Shown here piece by piece: positions 31,794 through 42,848 of a stretch of 64,000 nt of DNA. The stretch's first letter is position 1. Each line of letters starts with the position of its first letter. This DNA is from Escherichia phage UGJNEcP3. The DNA is taken from sequence record OV876907. One strand, given 5' to 3'. The notes below the pieces were generated by a model. The model saw nothing but the letters and a program-made list of their open reading frames with translations. It was not told the origin of the DNA and made no database searches. Both the position numbers and the translations under genes were made by a program.

Positions 31794-32528
31794 TTAACCT
31801 CTAATCAGTGAAAAAATTGAAGCATTCAGCGGAAGACCTTTTTTCAACTTCAATTTGTCAATAAAAGAAAGGTGTTCTAAACGCTCCAGACCTTGAATAA
31901 TTTTATCATACATATCGTAACGCGTTTCTGCTTCAGACAATTTAAACTTGACACGCCAGTCAGGTCCACCAATTAAAGATTTAAGACCTTTTTCCATAGT
32001 ACCAATTGAAGCATTAGAACCATGAATACGAGCCTTAACCGCGATGACAGAAGGGGTCTTATCAGTAGCTCCTGATTTAATAAGGTCCTTAAGTCGTTTT
32101 TCACGCTTTTTAAGGCCTCTTTGGGTGTCTTTAATATTTTTAACGATTTTACGAATTTTATAATAGTTATCGGGGGTGACTTTAAAACTATTAGGCATTT
32201 TAGAACTACCTGAAATACGGACCGCTAAACGGGTTTGTGCACGTTTCAATTCGTCTAGAGACAAATCGGCCCGTAAGCTGTTATACTTGATTTTAACTGG
32301 GATTACATTACCCTCAATATAGCCGATATCATTATTAAAACGTTCAAATGAAATCTTATCACTAACTGAATTCTCATCAAAGCTCTCGCCTGAATAAGCA
32401 CACACTTTTTGTTCGAGAAGTCTACGAACATACTTACTAGACAGATTGAAGTCCTTACCACGTTTATAAGCAGAAGCTTTGGTGTGTTTGCGGCGGTTGT
32501 AAACCTTTAACTCAAATTCAGGGGTCAT
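31794..32528 (-). CDS. hypothetical basic protein at the srd position
   Basis: 244 aa K/R-rich; syntenic with T4 srd; not sequence-verified. Confidence 0.5.
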   Translation of the reverse strand: MTPEFELKVYNRRKHTKASAYKRGKDFNLSSKYVRRLLEQKVCAYSGESFDENSVSDKISFERFNNDIGYIEGNVIPVKIKYNSLRADLSLDELKRAQTRLAVRISGSSKMPNSFKVTPDNYYKIRKIVKNIKDTQRGLKKREKRLKDLIKSGATDKTPSVIAVKARIHGSNASIGTMEKGLKSLIGGPDWRVKFKLSEAETRYDMYDKIIQGLERLEHLSFIDKLKLKKGLPLNASIFSLIRG

Positions 32529-32667: not shown

Positions 32668-33282
32668 TCAGTAAGAAAGAACGGAAAGATTCCAAATGGT
32701 GTAATTATTCCATTTAGGATTTCTCTCAATAGAGTCTACGCGCAGCGTAGTTCCCGCAGGGAACATCATCTCATCTTCATCATTAATTAATTGTAAGTTT
32801 GCTACACGTGTAGATTCAGGAAATGCGCCTGGGAACTCTTCAGGGGGCGCAGCACATAACATTTTAAAGATTTCTTCCTGATAATTGTACACAAATGGTG
32901 CATCATTAATACAAAAGATATTAAATGTGCCGTAGAAGTTATAAGATGCGAAATTCCTTGCCACGTTGAAGTCTTTAGAGAAGCTCATCACGCGGTCGAA
33001 TTCAATTACCGCACCTACACACATTGTGGACTCTAGATACCTCATAGTCTTTTTAGATATGCCGCGATAGAGCTTATCAGGCACTACAGAAGTCAGGTTC
33101 TTACGAATAATTTTGTTCAGAGTTTCCTGGATAGAATCAGGTTTATTTTCCATACACTGCCAGAGCGTGCTCTGTTCTAAATCAGAATACACCTCATCAA
33201 TTTCTATCTGAGTATTCTCACGGAAATCATCGCATTTGACATTGTTGATAAATTCTGCTAATTTATAGCTTGGATATAACAT
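32668..33282 (-). CDS. Mod-type mono-ADP-ribosyltransferase (ModA/ModB family)
   Basis: 204 aa; R-S-E-type motifs: YRG, SFS, E-x-E-like EDEMMFPAG; tandem with a paralog. Confidence 0.75.
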   Translation of the reverse strand: MLYPSYKLAEFINNVKCDDFRENTQIEIDEVYSDLEQSTLWQCMENKPDSIQETLNKIIRKNLTSVVPDKLYRGISKKTMRYLESTMCVGAVIEFDRVMSFSKDFNVARNFASYNFYGTFNIFCINDAPFVYNYQEEIFKMLCAAPPEEFPGAFPESTRVANLQLINDEDEMMFPAGTTLRVDSIERNPKWNNYTIWNLSVLSY

Positions 33283-33340: not shown

Positions 33341-33906
33341 AAATCCAACATTTTTAAATGAATTATTTTGTACTCGATTTCGTATGGATCCCTTTTGACG
33401 GTTTCGATTGCAACAATCTCAAATCGCGATAGACTAGAGACCATGAACTCGCATTCAGTTTCAACCATATCATAGAGGTCGATACGAGATTCATCTATTT
33501 CAAGCTCATCCACATTCCCTGCAAGAACAAGGTCGATAGCATGATTGTAGTAGTCGAAAATGAACGGTGCATTCCTGAGACTTAAAATGGTTTTGGTTCC
33601 ATACTCCCATGCCCCTGCGAACTGACGAGCCTGAGAGTATTGTGTACTAAAAGAAGTAACTCGACCAGGAGACCATTGACACCCTACTGAAAGGAGCTCT
33701 AATTGCTCAAGTTCTCTGGGGGTAATCCCGCGATACAACTCTACTGGAACCGCTGAAGTAACATGCTTGCGAACCAGTTTGTCGAGGTCGTAATGGAAGT
33801 TAGGGTCCTTTTTAGCGTCCAGACATTTTTCTAAAAGATTCTGTTCGTGTTTTGAGAATTTGGAATTGATTCGGTCTTGATAAAGACATTTTTGTTCGAT
33901 GTTCAT
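33337..33906 (-). CDS. Mod-type mono-ADP-ribosyltransferase (ModA/ModB family), paralog
   Basis: 189 aa; YRG, TSFS, ECEFMV motifs. Confidence 0.75.
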   Translation of the reverse strand: MNIEQKCLYQDRINSKFSKHEQNLLEKCLDAKKDPNFHYDLDKLVRKHVTSAVPVELYRGITPRELEQLELLSVGCQWSPGRVTSFSTQYSQARQFAGAWEYGTKTILSLRNAPFIFDYYNHAIDLVLAGNVDELEIDESRIDLYDMVETECEFMVSSLSRFEIVAIETVKRDPYEIEYKIIHLKMLDF

Positions 33907-38831: not shown

Positions 38832-39023
38832 TTATATTACGAAAATAGCTTTATCGCCATTTGCATCAGTGACTTCGTACGTATCTTCGTGGTAAAGTGG
38901 GATAATCCAGGTCACACCATCATCAGCAATAACATGGATAGCTTCTTGGTCTTTTGATACGATTTCATATTCTTCGAACAACTCGAATACAGAAATCTTA
39001 GAGCCCGTACACATTGCACTCAT
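38832..39023 (-). CDS. hypothetical protein (63 aa)
   Basis: early-strand ORF, acidic. Confidence 0.5.
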   Translation of the reverse strand: MSAMCTGSKISVFELFEEYEIVSKDQEAIHVIADDGVTWIIPLYHEDTYEVTDANGDKAIFVI

Positions 39024-39219
39024 ATTGTTCCCTTCTTTTAATCAGGTGGCGATGAGCCTTTTTAAGTTTACGAAGCTGGCGTTTAGTTGGCCGTGCAACA
39101 TAAGCTTGAGTAGTTACTCGTCCAAAAACACCATACTTAGGTGAAGGAGAATCAATAAAGACTTCCCACTGGCAGGAGTAACCATATACCGCTTTAGAGA
39201 ATTGAGTTAAAACAAACAT
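38998..39219 (-). CDS. hypothetical basic protein with RPTKRQ motif
   Basis: 73 aa; VARPTKRQLRKLKKAHR shared with ORF 40363-40659. Confidence 0.55.
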   Translation of the reverse strand: MFVLTQFSKAVYGYSCQWEVFIDSPSPKYGVFGRVTTQAYVARPTKRQLRKLKKAHRHLIKRREQYECNVYGL

Positions 39220-39220
39220 A

Positions 39221-39571
39221 TCAACCTCGATTCATAAAGGCATTAAAAATCTGGTCGTCGACAGACTGTTCTTGAGCTTTGTCTACCCCGTTCAAAATGT
39301 CGTTCGCTTCATCAGATAGCATGACTCCAATTTTGGGATTTCCTGTTATCCAGGCGGCGCAATCACGTACATTCTTTTTATCAAATGGATAGCCACGAGT
39401 ATCTTCATAAGGTCCATTCATTACCAGGAATGAGCGAGCCTTTATGATAATATCATCTTTAACGATAATATAACCAATCGCTTGATTAAACCGAGGGTCG
39501 CGGAATTCATAATGAGCATTACCATCATTATTGCTCGCCAGTTCAAAATTCAGAAAATTGTAATCATTCAT
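39221..39571 (-). CDS. hypothetical protein, member of paralog pair
   Basis: 116 aa; C-terminus SVDDQIFNAFMNRG shared with next ORF. Confidence 0.6.
   Translation of the reverse strand: MNDYNFLNFELASNNDGNAHYEFRDPRFNQAIGYIIVKDDIIIKARSFLVMNGPYEDTRGYPFDKKNVRDCAAWITGNPKIGVMLSDEANDILNGVDKAQEQSVDDQIFNAFMNRG
39223..39252. repeat. ~30-bp direct repeat, copy 1 (copy 2 at 39585-39614)
   Basis: near-identical ...AAGGCATTAAAAATCTGGTCGTC... at both sites, encoding the shared C-termini. Confidence 0.8.
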
Positions 39572-39572
39572 A

Positions 39573-40007
39573 TCAATCTCGCTTCATGAAGGCATTAAAA
39601 ATCTGGTCGTCAACTGAATATACAGGGGTTTCCAGAATTTTCAACAGGCTGTTTTTGATGTACTTGCTAGGGATATCCATATTAACGCAGTCGTTCAATT
39701 CGTTGTTAGGGATGATGTCTTTAAATTCAAACCCTTCAAACTCAACCTTGTCAGGAATACCATCAGCGAAAAAATAAACCAATTGGTGCATTGTATTGCA
39801 TGAAAATAATTTAGACTTCACTGCAATAAGTTCTTGCCAATGGTTTAATTCTCTATTAAGAAGTTTATGGGCAAATACAATCCTATCATCACTATCAACA
39901 ATAAAATAGCCCAGGTATTGATGGTCATCGTTCCAATACATCCTGTATGCCTGGGCATTTGGATTTTTACAACGAAGTTTTTTGATAACCAAATTTCTGT
40001 TAATCAT
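39573..40007 (-). CDS. hypothetical protein, member of paralog pair
   Basis: 144 aa from ATG 40005-40007 (AGGTGA SD, right after sp stop); C-terminus YSVDDQIFNAFMKRD. Confidence 0.6.
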   Translation of the reverse strand: MINRNLVIKKLRCKNPNAQAYRMYWNDDHQYLGYFIVDSDDRIVFAHKLLNRELNHWQELIAVKSKLFSCNTMHQLVYFFADGIPDKVEFEGFEFKDIIPNNELNDCVNMDIPSKYIKNSLLKILETPVYSVDDQIFNAFMKRD

Positions 40008-40008
40008 T

Positions 40009-40302
40009 TTATTCACCTGTAACTTCTTTAACGATATTTTTGTTATCGAAATTAGCATCGCAGTACAGAACATAGTTATACTGCATAACACCACCTGAAG
40101 CTAATTGGTCTGACACTTCTTTAGCCATATCAGGGCGGTCACGTTTAGTGATGTTCATGATATCAGCATAAATCTGATGTTCGACTGATTCTTGGTCTGC
40201 AGTCATAGACCATTCACAAAGGTCTTTATCCAATCCGGCTGTAACTGGAGCTGTACCACATGATGCTACTGTAAGGATTGCTGCGATTAATAACTTTTTC
40301 AT
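40009..40302 (-). CDS. sp: Spackle-like secreted protein with lipobox-like signal peptide
   Basis: 97 aa from ATG 40300-40302 (GAGGAG SD); MKKLLIAAILTVASCG signal; size and position as T4 sp. Confidence 0.65.
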   Translation of the reverse strand: MKKLLIAAILTVASCGTAPVTAGLDKDLCEWSMTADQESVEHQIYADIMNITKRDRPDMAKEVSDQLASGGVMQYNYVLYCDANFDNKNIVKEVTGE

Positions 40303-40323
40303 TTGAATCTCCTCGTTAGTTGA

Positions 40324-40363
40324 TAGGTCTATAGTATCACTACCATAGACCGTTGTAAACACT
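40324..40363 (-). promoter_or_regulatory. early promoter for sp
   Basis: GTTTAC(40355-40360), 18 bp, gTGaTACTAT, AGACCTATCAACTAACGAGGAG. Confidence 0.55.
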
Positions 40364-40659
40364 TATTTTACTTTAGAGTAATCCAAAGTTACTAACTGTG
40401 GTTCCATTGCCAGCCGACGCTGACGACGGAGAACCTCACCACCAACATAAGCTCGAAAAGCTTTTTTGCACTGGCGAATCTGACGCTTAGTAGGGCGAAC
40501 AGTAAATTCGTAGAACTCTACAAAATCCATTTCGCCTTTAGTTTCCTGAGAAAGGACAAGTTCCCAACGACTATTAATACGGTCTACATAAAACTTGTGC
40601 TTACCAAAAGACCGGTCCCAAAAGCCACTTTTAACAGGTTTCATAATTTGAATATTCAT
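40363..40659 (-). CDS. hypothetical basic protein with RPTKRQ motif
   Basis: 98 aa; VRPTKRQIRQCKKAFR. Confidence 0.6.
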   Translation of the reverse strand: MNIQIMKPVKSGFWDRSFGKHKFYVDRINSRWELVLSQETKGEMDFVEFYEFTVRPTKRQIRQCKKAFRAYVGGEVLRRQRRLAMEPQLVTLDYSKVK

Positions 40660-40800
40660 TTATTCCTCACCTTCATGTTTGTGAGCAAATTCTTCGTATT
40701 CGCTGTCGCAGTCTAAACAGGTAGCGTTGTCCCAAGCATCAAATACTGCCTGGTCTTCACATACTGAACAACCACATACTACACATTCAACTTCTTCCAT
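40660..40800 (-). CDS. Cys-rich 46-aa micro-protein (zinc-ribbon-like)
   Basis: MEEVECVVCGCSVCEDQ...CLDCDSEYEE; stop adjacent to next ATG (TAAATG); not in ORF track. Confidence 0.45.
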   Translation of the reverse strand: MEEVECVVCGCSVCEDQAVFDAWDNATCLDCDSEYEEFAHKHEGEE

Positions 40801-41007
40801 TTAGATTTCCTCAATGCGGGCATCATATTCAAAAACTTTATTGTCATTAACAAAGGCTTTCACCAGTGCATTATTCACTTCTGCATACTGCACTGTAACC
40901 CATTCAATCATTTTTTGGTCACTAACATCCAGCGCAGTTTCTTTGGTAAACATATTACCATTTTCAAACCAACCAATAAACACTACGATCTCTTTTAATT
41001 TCCACAT
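40801..41007 (-). CDS. dmd: Dmd-like antitoxin
   Basis: 68 aa; GWFENGNMFTKE...VQYAEVNNALVKAF resembles T4 Dmd (memory); position near gene 41. Confidence 0.65.
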   Translation of the reverse strand: MWKLKEIVVFIGWFENGNMFTKETALDVSDQKMIEWVTVQYAEVNNALVKAFVNDNKVFEYDARIEEI

Positions 41008-41337
41008 TTAGATTTCCTCACAGAAGGCCCATTCAGCATGATAAACCGTAGCGCCTTTAGTATCATTTAAACAAACCACATCTACCGGAGCAATTACACG
41101 ATAAAGACGGGGTTCTCCTCCCACTGAACGAGCTGCTCGTCCAGCATAAATCTTAGCCAAACCGATATCTTCAGTAAAGAACACACGATTTAGGTTTTTC
41201 TTACGACCGGTTTCAGACAGAACTCCTGTTTCCTCGGGAGGACAAAGCATATTACCGATATTAGCAACACTGCAACTTCCGTGATAATACACTTTATATT
41301 CTGTTTTACAGTCGATGGTTTTCATTTTGTTCTCCAA
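41008..41337 (-). CDS. hypothetical protein (109 aa), extra relative to T4 order
   Basis: lies between dmd and 41; motifs YYHGS, NRVFFTED, VYHAEW. Confidence 0.6.
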   Translation of the reverse strand: MENKMKTIDCKTEYKVYYHGSCSVANIGNMLCPPEETGVLSETGRKKNLNRVFFTEDIGLAKIYAGRAARSVGGEPRLYRVIAPVDVVCLNDTKGATVYHAEWAFCEEI

Positions 41338-41342
41338 GTTGA

Positions 41343-41381
41343 TAGGTCTATAGTATCATGCCTATAGGAGATGTAAACCCT
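41343..41381 (-). promoter_or_regulatory. early promoter
   Basis: GTTTAC(41373-41378), 17 bp, caTGaTACTAT, AGACCTATCAACTTGGAG. Confidence 0.55.
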
Positions 41382-41387
41382 TAAAAC

Positions 41388-41408
41388 AAAAAAAGGAGCC
41401 GAAGCTCC
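41388..41408 (-). terminator. intrinsic terminator after gene 41
   Basis: minus-sense GGAGC-UUCG-GCUCC hairpin followed by TTTTTTT. Confidence 0.65.
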
Positions 41409-42848
41409 TTAAAATTTGATAGATGCTGCTAAATCGTCCAAATCACTTCTATTAACACGCGTCTGTCGATTGACCTCGGCTTGTCGATTCATCTCACCTG
41501 TAGCCTCACGAACGGTGTTCACTGGACCCGGGTTGGAATCGTCTTCAACTTCATACCAACGTTGATTTCCTTTCTTAACACCAATCTTAAATTTGTTGTA
41601 GTAGCTCTTATCGCCATAACGAGATTTAAGCTGCTTAACCATCTGCATACCCATCTGGGCAAACTCTTCTGTCTCGACCACACCTAACATGAAGTCTGCA
41701 GTATGTGCAATACCAAAGGATTCAGCAATATCGGCCATATCGATTTCGGCTGCAACGTTCGCACCACGAGTAGTCTGGGCTGCAGTCCACAACAATAATT
41801 TCTTCTCTACTGCAAGTCCACGTAGTTCTTCGGCAACCATCTTAATCAATCCGTAACTGTTTTCAGAGAAAACTTTCGTACGAGACGATGCACAGATGGC
41901 CAAGTAGTCGACGATAACGACCTGTGGGACAAAGTTTTGTTTGAGCTTATATTCGTTTAATAATGCACGGAATGTATCGGCATTCGCACCACCAGTAGGA
42001 TACTGTTTAATCTTTAAACGACCTAAGGTAGCAGTTGAACGCCATTTATCCATCTTAGCTTTATATTCAGGCCATGAGACGTGACCATCATCGATATCGT
42101 CCAGTGACACGTCCAGAAGGTTGGCATCGATACGCTTAGCACATACTTCCTCTGCCATCTCCATGGAGATATAAAGAACATCGTATCCGGATTGAAGGTA
42201 ATCAGCAGCCAATGAACAAAGACCAAGAGACTTACCTACGTTTGTTCCTGCCAACAATACGTTTTCAGTACCAAACTCGGCACCACCCTTGGTAATCTTA
42301 TTCAGAATATTAAGACGGAATGGAACCTTACGTGCTTTATCGGAATAACTTTTGAATCGTTCTTCATAGTCATCCATCCAGTCATGACCTAATTCAGAAT
42401 CGAAACAAATCGATAATGCATCACGCATGATATCCGGAATAGCACCAATACCTGGAAGTTTTCTATTTTGTTGCTCAACCGGAAGGTCGGCATTAGTTTG
42501 GATTTCAATGATTTTTGAAGTTGCATTATACATCGCTGCTTTCTGAACGTATTTCTCCGTCTCTTTAACCAACCATTCTTGGTCTTCAGGTCCGGCATTC
42601 AGCGAACTTAAAAGCTCTTTAGCGCCTTGGTGTTCAACTTCTGAAAGCGTACTGTTATCTAACGCAATACTCAATGCATTCTTAGAAGGCACTGCATTAT
42701 ATTCATTGACATGTTTTTTAATTTCTTTGAAAAGGGTCTTTGCAGGACCCTGGTCAAAATATGAATCATTCATATAAGGCCAAACCTTAGTGAAATAATC
42801 ACTATTGCCTAGCAGTTGAGCCAAAATAGTTTCTACCACTTCCACCAC
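41409..42848 (-). CDS. 41: replicative DnaB-like helicase gp41
   Basis: 479 aa; Walker A GTNVGKS, RecA-like core; T4 gp41 size and position. Confidence 0.9.
   Translation of the reverse strand: MVEVVETILAQLLGNSDYFTKVWPYMNDSYFDQGPAKTLFKEIKKHVNEYNAVPSKNALSIALDNSTLSEVEHQGAKELLSSLNAGPEDQEWLVKETEKYVQKAAMYNATSKIIEIQTNADLPVEQQNRKLPGIGAIPDIMRDALSICFDSELGHDWMDDYEERFKSYSDKARKVPFRLNILNKITKGGAEFGTENVLLAGTNVGKSLGLCSLAADYLQSGYDVLYISMEMAEEVCAKRIDANLLDVSLDDIDDGHVSWPEYKAKMDKWRSTATLGRLKIKQYPTGGANADTFRALLNEYKLKQNFVPQVVIVDYLAICASSRTKVFSENSYGLIKMVAEELRGLAVEKKLLLWTAAQTTRGANVAAEIDMADIAESFGIAHTADFMLGVVETEEFAQMGMQMVKQLKSRYGDKSYYNKFKIGVKKGNQRWYEVEDDSNPGPVNTVREATGEMNRQAEVNRQTRVNRSDLDDLAASIKF

Follow-up and report, generated by a model that had tools for sequence, protein, structure and literature searches.

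A predicted minimal Arr-like ADP-ribosyltransferase encoded between gene 41 and dmd of a T4-like phage

Escherichia phage UGJNEcP3 (sequence record OV876907), of which we analyzed one stretch of 64,000 nt (the window), carries between gene 41 and dmd a small minus-strand gene (41008..41325) whose product is predicted to have the ADP-ribosyltransferase (ART) fold. The protein, 105 amino acids (aa) long, appears to belong to a phage-specific branch of ARTs that stands next to Arr, the rifampin ADP-ribosyltransferase—a sister branch, to judge from its sequence, rather than an ortholog. Our reading, which we hold with moderate confidence, is that it acts by itself, early in infection, as an active transferase dependent on nicotinamide adenine dinucleotide (NAD+), and that it serves host take-over or counter-defense. 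Membership in the ART superfamily was predicted from sequence before, and some GenBank records name the gene ‘putative ADP-ribosyl transferase’; it is an uncharacterized member of a known superfamily.

Fold, family and putative active site

Compared on its own with Pfam, the protein matches Arr-ms at E = 0.026 (15.1 bits, where the cut-off is 25), and with NCBIfam it matches rifampin_ARR (NF033144) at E = 0.07 (12.9 bits, against a cut-off of 130). Among PDB sequences, neither the single sequence nor a profile of its close homologs (A1) finds a match. An exhaustive profile search over 1.84 billion representative proteins gathered 246 relatives (147 with E ≤ 1e-10), and the family profile, once widened with the more distant relatives (A2), matches the Arr structures 2HW2 and 9IAF at E = 6e-4. 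Individual members also match Pfam Arr-ms at E ≤ 0.01—33 of 62 do so, the best at 1.2e-10—and several longer relatives exceed the Pfam threshold, at 27–31 bits. Because the widened profile reaches the Arr structures and members of the family match Arr-ms, we place this open reading frame (ORF) on a branch next to Arr.

The AlphaFold2 model, built on 56 homologs (predicted local distance difference test, pLDDT, 86; predicted template-modeling score, pTM, 0.78), displays the split β-sheet of the ART fold, with its elements in the order beta-alpha-beta-alpha-beta-beta-beta-beta. Structurally it compares best with Tpt1/KptA, Arr, AcrF11 and diphtheria toxin. Foldseek places Arr on top, with a template-modeling (TM) score of 0.64 over 104 columns and a probability of 1.0, and Tpt1 second; in BFVD, the nearest protein that is not an ortholog is a 94-aa siphovirus protein labeled ‘Ms Rifampin ADP-ribosyl transferase’ (TM 0.72). 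The prediction from which this analysis began (the original prediction) had named a structure search as the check to make, and an unrelated fold as the outcome that would tell against it; the fold returned is that of an ART. The same prediction had likened the ORF to the H-Y-E and Tpt1-like class of NAD-utilizing transferases. What stands of that is a very small ART-fold protein with structural matches to Tpt1/KptA, Arr and AcrF11 and a profile match to Arr; what falls, for reasons given below, are the tyrosine, which is Phe49, and the catalytic acid, which the motif VYHAEW does not provide.

Might the protein simply be a true Arr that inactivates rifamycins, or a true Tpt1 that removes 2'-phosphates in RNA repair? 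We think both extremely unlikely. Arr-ms and rifampin_ARR are, it is true, the best Pfam and NCBIfam matches, some GenBank records are named accordingly, and an RNA ligase 2 gene lies nearby in Slopekvirus-type loci. The NCBIfam equivalog score, however, is less than a tenth of its cut-off, only the first ~60 model positions are matched, and most of the C-terminal part of Arr is gone (105 aa versus 143 aa). As for Tpt1, its N-terminal RNA-binding lobe is missing, Pfam Tpt1 goes unmatched at E ≤ 1, and T4-type RNA repair leaves no 2'-phosphate.

What the family conserves was read from a census of 269 family sequences, fewer of which are aligned at some positions. His15, Gly16, Glu38, Arg41, Thr51, Ala57, Tyr60, Gly69-Gly70 and Gly91 vary little or not at all. 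Three motifs—YYHGS, NRVFFTED and VYHAEW—had been picked out in the original prediction as loose counterparts of a His/aromatic/Glu triad; all are found in the ORF, at residues 13–17, 46–53 and 94–99, and their fortunes differ. The first, Y13-Y-H15-G16-S17 (41275..41289, minus strand, as are all the features of this gene), is the putative NAD-binding motif of strand 1, and it does hold the conserved histidine. His15, present in 254 of the 255 members aligned there, aligns to His19 of Arr-ms, Gly16 is present in all, and H15-G16-S17 reproduces the strand-1 His-Gly-[Ser/Thr] of the ART superfamily. The second, N46-R-V-F49-F-T51-E-D53 (41167..41190), corresponds to strand 2 and does cover the aromatic position, but Phe49 aligns there to Tyr49 of Arr-ms; phenylalanine occupies this position in 259 members and tyrosine in nine. 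The aromatic ring is thus kept and the hydroxyl lost, and the strand-2 tyrosine of the H-Y-[EDQ] class is absent. The third, V94-Y-H96-A-E98-W99 (41029..41046), falls in strand 5, and as a catalytic-Glu motif we reject it, on the model and the census together: it is conserved in the T4-like clade only. His96, Trp99, Phe101 and Glu103 are kept within that clade and are Met or hydrophobic residues in the wider set, and Glu98 varies even inside the clade.

Immediately before strand 2 lies an invariant loop of acidic and basic residues, S37-E38-T-G40-R41-K-K43-N44-L45 (41191..41217), which is flexible in the model and modeled with low confidence (pLDDT <50 at residues 39–41). Its E-x-G-R motif is shared by Arr-ms (E40-A-G-R43) and Arr-2 (EDGR). 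Profile A2 pairs His15 with Arr-ms His19, Phe49 with Tyr49, Thr51 with Thr51, Glu38 with Glu40 and Arg41 with Arg43; going by this alignment, the residues lining the NAD+ pocket of Arr—His15-Gly16-Ser17, Phe49, Thr51 and the E38-x-G-R41 loop—appear to be retained. The invariant Arg41, Lys43 and Arg63, on or near the loop, suggest an anionic substrate. Tyr60 (41146..41148), in the helix after strand 2, is as conserved in the family as the pocket residues (Tyr in 263 members, Phe in four), but stands opposite Gly60 of Arr-ms in the alignment; the spacing F49-x10-Y60 is one that we take to recall the Y-x10-Y of diphtheria-toxin-type ARTs. Residues 82–105, where the strand-5 acid would be sought, hold no family-wide acidic residue. 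Three sites are candidates for the third catalytic residue: Asp88, position 87, where members have N, S, D or Q, and position 93, where they have T, S or E.

These features could also be read another way, namely that the protein is an inactive ART-fold binder of NAD+ or of an ADP-ribose-derived molecule—a sponge or decoy directed, for example, against NAD-derived immune signals. The triad tyrosine is phenylalanine in 259 of 268 members, strand 5 has no conserved acid, and the very small size and early expression may be thought to resemble those of sponge proteins. Yet the invariant E38, R41, K43, N44 and T51 look like catalytic or substrate-binding residues rather than merely structural ones, and the occurrence of single copies of the domain beside enzymes in injected polyvalent proteins, described below, is more easily reconciled with a catalyst than with a stoichiometric sponge. 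Arr, moreover, is active without the classical Glu. We consider an inactive binder distinctly unlikely, and prefer an active transferase.

A conserved early gene of T4-like phages

Searched with tblastn, the ART gene is found in 609 phage records, 600 of which cover at least 80% of it. The hosts are Escherichia (215 records), Klebsiella (116), Acinetobacter (68), Aeromonas (62), Enterobacter (29) and others, and identities range from 63% to 100% except in 10 remoter records, which fall below 60%. In pairwise comparisons with relatives, the ratio of non-synonymous to synonymous substitution rates (dN/dS) lies between 0.03 and 0.16, and the gene is under strong purifying selection. Since it recurs in so many records and is constrained in this way, the ORF is a genuine gene and not a chance reading frame; absence or degradation in close relatives, raised earlier as a possible refutation, is not what we find. 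Between genera, the ART gene is better conserved than the essential gp41 helicase: the window phage and Cronobacter phage leE share 68.6% identity in ART and 54.9% in gp41, and with Acinetobacter phages the figures are about 73% and 58.6%. The gene is widespread yet patchy, because gp41 relatives occur in about 2,450 records, cyanophages included, and ART in 609, and T4 lacks it.

One copy is broken. In RB43 (L059 3001..3316, the IMG/VR copy of NC_007023) a +1 frameshift occurs after about codon 26, where RB43 reads GAAAGGCATG and RB16 has GAAAGCATG. The gene is intact in RB43's close relatives, RB16 and Lw1 for example, and the frameshift is either the mark of a pseudogene or an error of an early genome sequence.

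Outside phages the family hardly exists. Among 185,579 prokaryotic species, represented by one genome each, the family profile A3 hits only three loci: two in metagenome-assembled genomes of candidate phyla, and one on a phage contig, T4-like and 178 kb long, within a Flagellimonas assembly. The family is essentially phage-borne, and there is therefore no bacterial toxin–immunity context to draw on. The Flagellimonas contig (L078; NZ_JBHSCL010000010.1, ‘Flagellimonas marina’) carries a Slopekvirus-type ART of 105 aa together with an RNA ligase 2-like gene. In length it equals a T4-like genome, and it is probably the genome of a contaminating enterobacterial phage inside a flavobacterial assembly.

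The gene was originally delimited as a 109-aa ORF (41008..41337) found mechanically from a TTG codon between dmd and gene 41. The location was right; the length was not. The TTG at 41337 overlaps a Shine-Dalgarno sequence, GGAG (41335..41332), which stands 6 nt 5' of an ATG (41325..41323), and we reject it as a start. Shine-Dalgarno placement, the GenBank annotation and PHROG 2110 (which matches residues 1–105 of 105 at E = 1.6e-60) all point to ATG 41325, as do most homologs, which like the annotation begin at MKTI. Most likely, then, translation starts there and runs to the TAA at 41010..41008, 41326..41337 being leader and the product 105 aa (MKTIDC...FCEEI) rather than 109.

The window phage is a JS98-like Dhakavirus: positions 40000–42000 match Escherichia phage UGJNEcP4 (OV877765) at 100% identity, and JS98, JS10, IME08 and their relatives at 92–95%. 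Counterparts of the ART gene are JS98 orf34 and RB69ORF040c, and the corresponding PHROG is 2110. On the minus strand the genes follow one another in the order uvsX, 40, 41, ART, dmd, a 46-aa Cys-rich ORF, a 98-aa DUF7279 protein and spackle, and on to the primase gene, 61. The helicase gene is 41 (41409..42848); dmd (40801..41007; 68 aa) matches the Dmd family of Pfam at E = 9e-20 and that of PHROG at E = 3e-31. In T4 (NC_000866), gene 41 and dmd are separated by 58 bp without an ORF, so the original prediction was right that dmd lies near gene 41 in T4 and that an extra ORF is interposed here. RB69 carries an additional ORF, of 124 aa (RB69ORF041c, L003 2072..2446), between gene 41 and ART; the window phage and JS98 do not.

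Directly after gene 41 comes a hairpin resembling an intrinsic terminator, AAGGAGCTTCGGCTCCTT followed by a run of Ts (41393..41410), and then a sequence that fits the T4 early-promoter pattern, (G)TTTACA-16-TACTAT with TG before the -10 hexamer (41377..41350). Because these two elements stand directly upstream, ART is the predicted first gene of an early unit that would run into dmd and the genes beyond, and its ORF appears to be a genuine immediate-early gene. The small genes of the region nearly all abut or overlap, ART and dmd among them.

Some of these small genes seem to have arisen by duplication. The 98-aa DUF7279 protein (40363..40659), which is 61.4-like, shares the motif RPTKRQ[IL]R..KKA.R with the 73-aa product of 38998..39219, and the two look like paralogs within the 41–61 early region. 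The adjacent ORFs 39221..39571 and 39573..40094 share the ending SVDDQIFNAFM[NK]R[GD], which points to tandem paralogy; JS98 has one gene there (orf30), and the window phage would therefore have an extra copy. All four lie on the minus strand.

Dmd, polyvalent relatives and a proposed function

In the only earlier treatment that we found, Iyer, Burroughs, Anantharaman and Aravind (2022; PMC9503650; Viruses 14:1977) described a ‘p0068-family’ H-Y-[EDQ] ART beside Dmd in Escherichia, Shigella and Salmonella phages, and proposed that ART and Dmd form a type II toxin–antitoxin pair, possibly RNA-targeting. Their p0068-like family is almost certainly the family of this ORF, the two being equated by a matching description, a predicted ART immediately upstream of Dmd in T4-like phages. 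If the proposal applied here, ART would be a toxin and the adjacent Dmd its cognate antitoxin. The stop codon of ART abuts the start codon of dmd (TAAATG), both genes lie behind one early-type promoter, and the order ART–dmd recurs in Dhakavirus and Mosigvirus relatives; PMC9503650 further reports a Mod-like ART in the same spot, upstream of Dmd, in some Klebsiella phages.

Abutment is uninformative, however, because every small early gene here directly adjoins the next, and beyond this locus the two genes keep little company. Dmd lies within 3 kb of ART at only 10 of 68 IMG/VR loci and not within that distance at the other 58, and what follows ART varies with lineage: besides Dmd, the gene next downstream may encode the 46-aa Cys-rich protein, gp30.6, a lipoprotein, a small membrane protein or yet another product. 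Their organism ranges are largely disjoint. Dmd matches 797 records, nearly all from Escherichia, Shigella, Yersinia and Salmonella phages, and the Klebsiella, Acinetobacter and Aeromonas groups that carry ART are not among the Dmd organism groups listed. Those Dmd records with less than 60% identity, 532 in number, we infer to be T4-type Tequatrovirus phages without ART, as was checked directly in T4 alone; T4 does have dmd and no ART. Nor do the two co-vary. In IME08, ART is 99% identical to that of the window phage and the adjacent Dmd only 52.6%, and the two genes therefore recombine independently. Dmd, finally, has a known target of its own, RnlA/LsoA (literature cited in PMC9503650 and PMC11825919). 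The distribution of ART is independent of that of Dmd, pairing is not obligate, and the conserved co-occurrence and adjacency that would mark a toxin–antitoxin pair are not found. We judge such a pair very unlikely, and regard dmd as a neighbor of ART, predicted to be co-transcribed with it, rather than as an established partner.

A few observations on the same stretch of genome may be recorded here. Comparison of IME08 (HM071924 18964..19461) with the window (40801..41325) puts a recombination boundary exactly between ART and dmd, and two highly divergent Dmd alleles circulate in otherwise near-identical Dhakaviruses. A hidden Dmd homolog 3' of ART was considered for Klebsiella, Acinetobacter and Aeromonas phages and rejected; the ORFs there encode a small membrane protein, a peptide of 30 aa and gp30.6, and Pfam Dmd matches none of them. 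The 46-aa Cys-rich ORF directly 3' of dmd (40660..40800, minus strand; CxxC...CxxC; PHROG 13952) is probably a zinc ribbon, and at four loci (L016, L021, L023 and L025) it lies directly 3' of ART with no Dmd between.

Relatives of the phage ART in the wider set take a different form. Many are a single domain, C-terminal or internal, in proteins of 250–3900 aa, whose partner domains in Pfam scans include DUF7178, a lambda-type portal with a 2H/Acb1-like phosphoesterase, GNAT with Toprim, CHAP and LPD23. Such proteins are polyvalent effectors, injected or associated with the virion, of the kind described by Iyer et al. (2017; PMC5512222), who treated polyvalent, virion-delivered proteins and predicted that the ARTs in them modify host proteins. 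One metagenomic protein, P0186 (954 aa), joins the Arr-like domain to a lambda-type portal and a 2H/Acb1-like phosphoesterase; in another, P0150 (1955 aa), the domain is directly preceded by ART-PolyVal and directly followed by NUDIX. Either arrangement hints at further processing of a product derived from ADP-ribose. Arr-like and ART-PolyVal domains stand side by side in P0150, P0138 and P0229, and the presence of this second, different ART domain argues for a distinct activity of the Arr-like one.

How might the active transferase that we favor work? Within the first minutes of infection, the ART protein would bind host NAD+ and pass ADP-ribose to an acceptor conserved among gammaproteobacterial hosts, and the effect would be host take-over or the neutralization of a defense. 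Such a host-conserved acceptor would explain why ART is conserved above the helicase. The protein would work alone, with no dedicated antitoxin. The acceptor might be a small molecule or the end of a nucleic acid, modified at a hydroxyl or a phosphate, rather than a protein side chain: we weakly favor a non-protein acceptor because of the affinities with Arr and Tpt1, the lack of a conserved catalytic Glu/Asp on strand 5, the basic loop (R41, K43 and R63) and the fusions to NUDIX and 2H domains. A more specific version of this idea, that the acceptor is new for phage ARTs—a phosphorylated RNA or DNA end, or an immune nucleotide second messenger or alarmone, capped or inactivated in the first minutes—we would put forward only as an improbable one.

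Alternatively, the protein might be a mono-ADP-ribosyltransferase that targets proteins, acting on RNA polymerase or translation factors as Alt, ModA and ModB do, or on a defense protein in the manner of AcrF11. This would agree with what was predicted for the ARTs of polyvalent proteins (PMC5512222). The two closest relatives, Tpt1 and Arr, nevertheless use non-protein acceptors, and the census finds no conserved catalytic Glu. The window phage, besides, already has two Mod-like ARTs of the R-S-E class, and the co-existence of a separate ART-PolyVal domain in polyvalent proteins suggests a different job for the Arr-like one. Protein targeting seems to us unlikely, though deserving of some weight.

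Several points temper our preference for an active, stand-alone transferase. The protein's own Pfam and NCBIfam scores lie far under their cut-offs. The census of 269 members places no canonical third catalytic residue, there being no family-wide acidic residue in the C-terminal half, and with phenylalanine at the tyrosine position the protein may conceivably be an inactive binder. That the conserved residues gather round one pocket would follow by homology to Arr. AcrF11, third-best among the structural matches, modifies a protein. We found no experimental study of this protein in the literature, and no enzymatic evidence; PADLOC defense models match neither it nor three longer relatives at E ≤ 0.1; and the counter-defense role is drawn purely from context.

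If the improbable version with an acceptor new for phage ARTs is true, it would amount to a new counter-defense or take-over chemistry of about 600 sequenced T4-like phages and of many injected polyvalent proteins. The gene is present in about 600 genomes, at the predicted head of an early operon, and is conserved above the replicative helicase, all in the best-studied group of lytic phages; its domain has been recruited repeatedly into proteins injected with phage DNA. The acceptor, once identified, could reveal a new NAD+-dependent take-over or anti-defense reaction. The family having been flagged before by sequence analysis, none of this will surprise the specialist, but it seems to us worth an experiment.

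Comparison with known ADP-ribosyltransferases

Arr (PF12120; PDB 2HW2, 9IAF and 9IBA) offers the closest comparison. Both it and the phage protein have Y-H-G-[ST] in strand 1, the E-x-G-R loop, an aromatic-x-T in strand 2 and G-G before strand 3, and the matches between them run over positions 1–59 of 99 in Pfam, 3–61 of 131 in NCBIfam and 13–82 of 143 in the PDB chain. They differ in that the phage protein lacks the C-terminal part with which Arr, at 143 aa, forms its rifampin site, in that Tyr49 of Arr is replaced by Phe, and in that no counterpart of Asp84 can be identified in the phage protein. They differ in setting, too: one is an early gene of lytic phages, the other a resistance gene of bacteria and integrons.

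In Tpt1/KptA, the N-terminal lobe that the phage protein does without carries the catalytic Arg-His-Arg-Arg residues. AcrF11 (PDB 6KYF) has no detectable sequence relationship to the phage protein, and its acceptor is a protein side chain. ART-PolyVal (PF18760) is a separate ART family; it occurs in giant injected proteins of the type in which the wider relatives of the phage ART are found as single domains.

T4 Alt, ModA and ModB resemble the protein described here in being ARTs of T4-group phages that act at the start of infection. They differ from it in class, which is R-S-E, and in size, at about 200–680 aa. The window phage has its own representatives of that class, two Mod-like genes on the minus strand (~32677..33228 and ~33406..33873) whose products are 33–38% identical to T4 ModA/ModB, with srd (31797..32507) downstream of them. 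The Arr-like gene comes in addition to these, belongs to another class and is unrelated to them; it would, with its acceptor identified, join Alt, ModA and ModB as a fourth mechanistically distinct ART of the T4 group.

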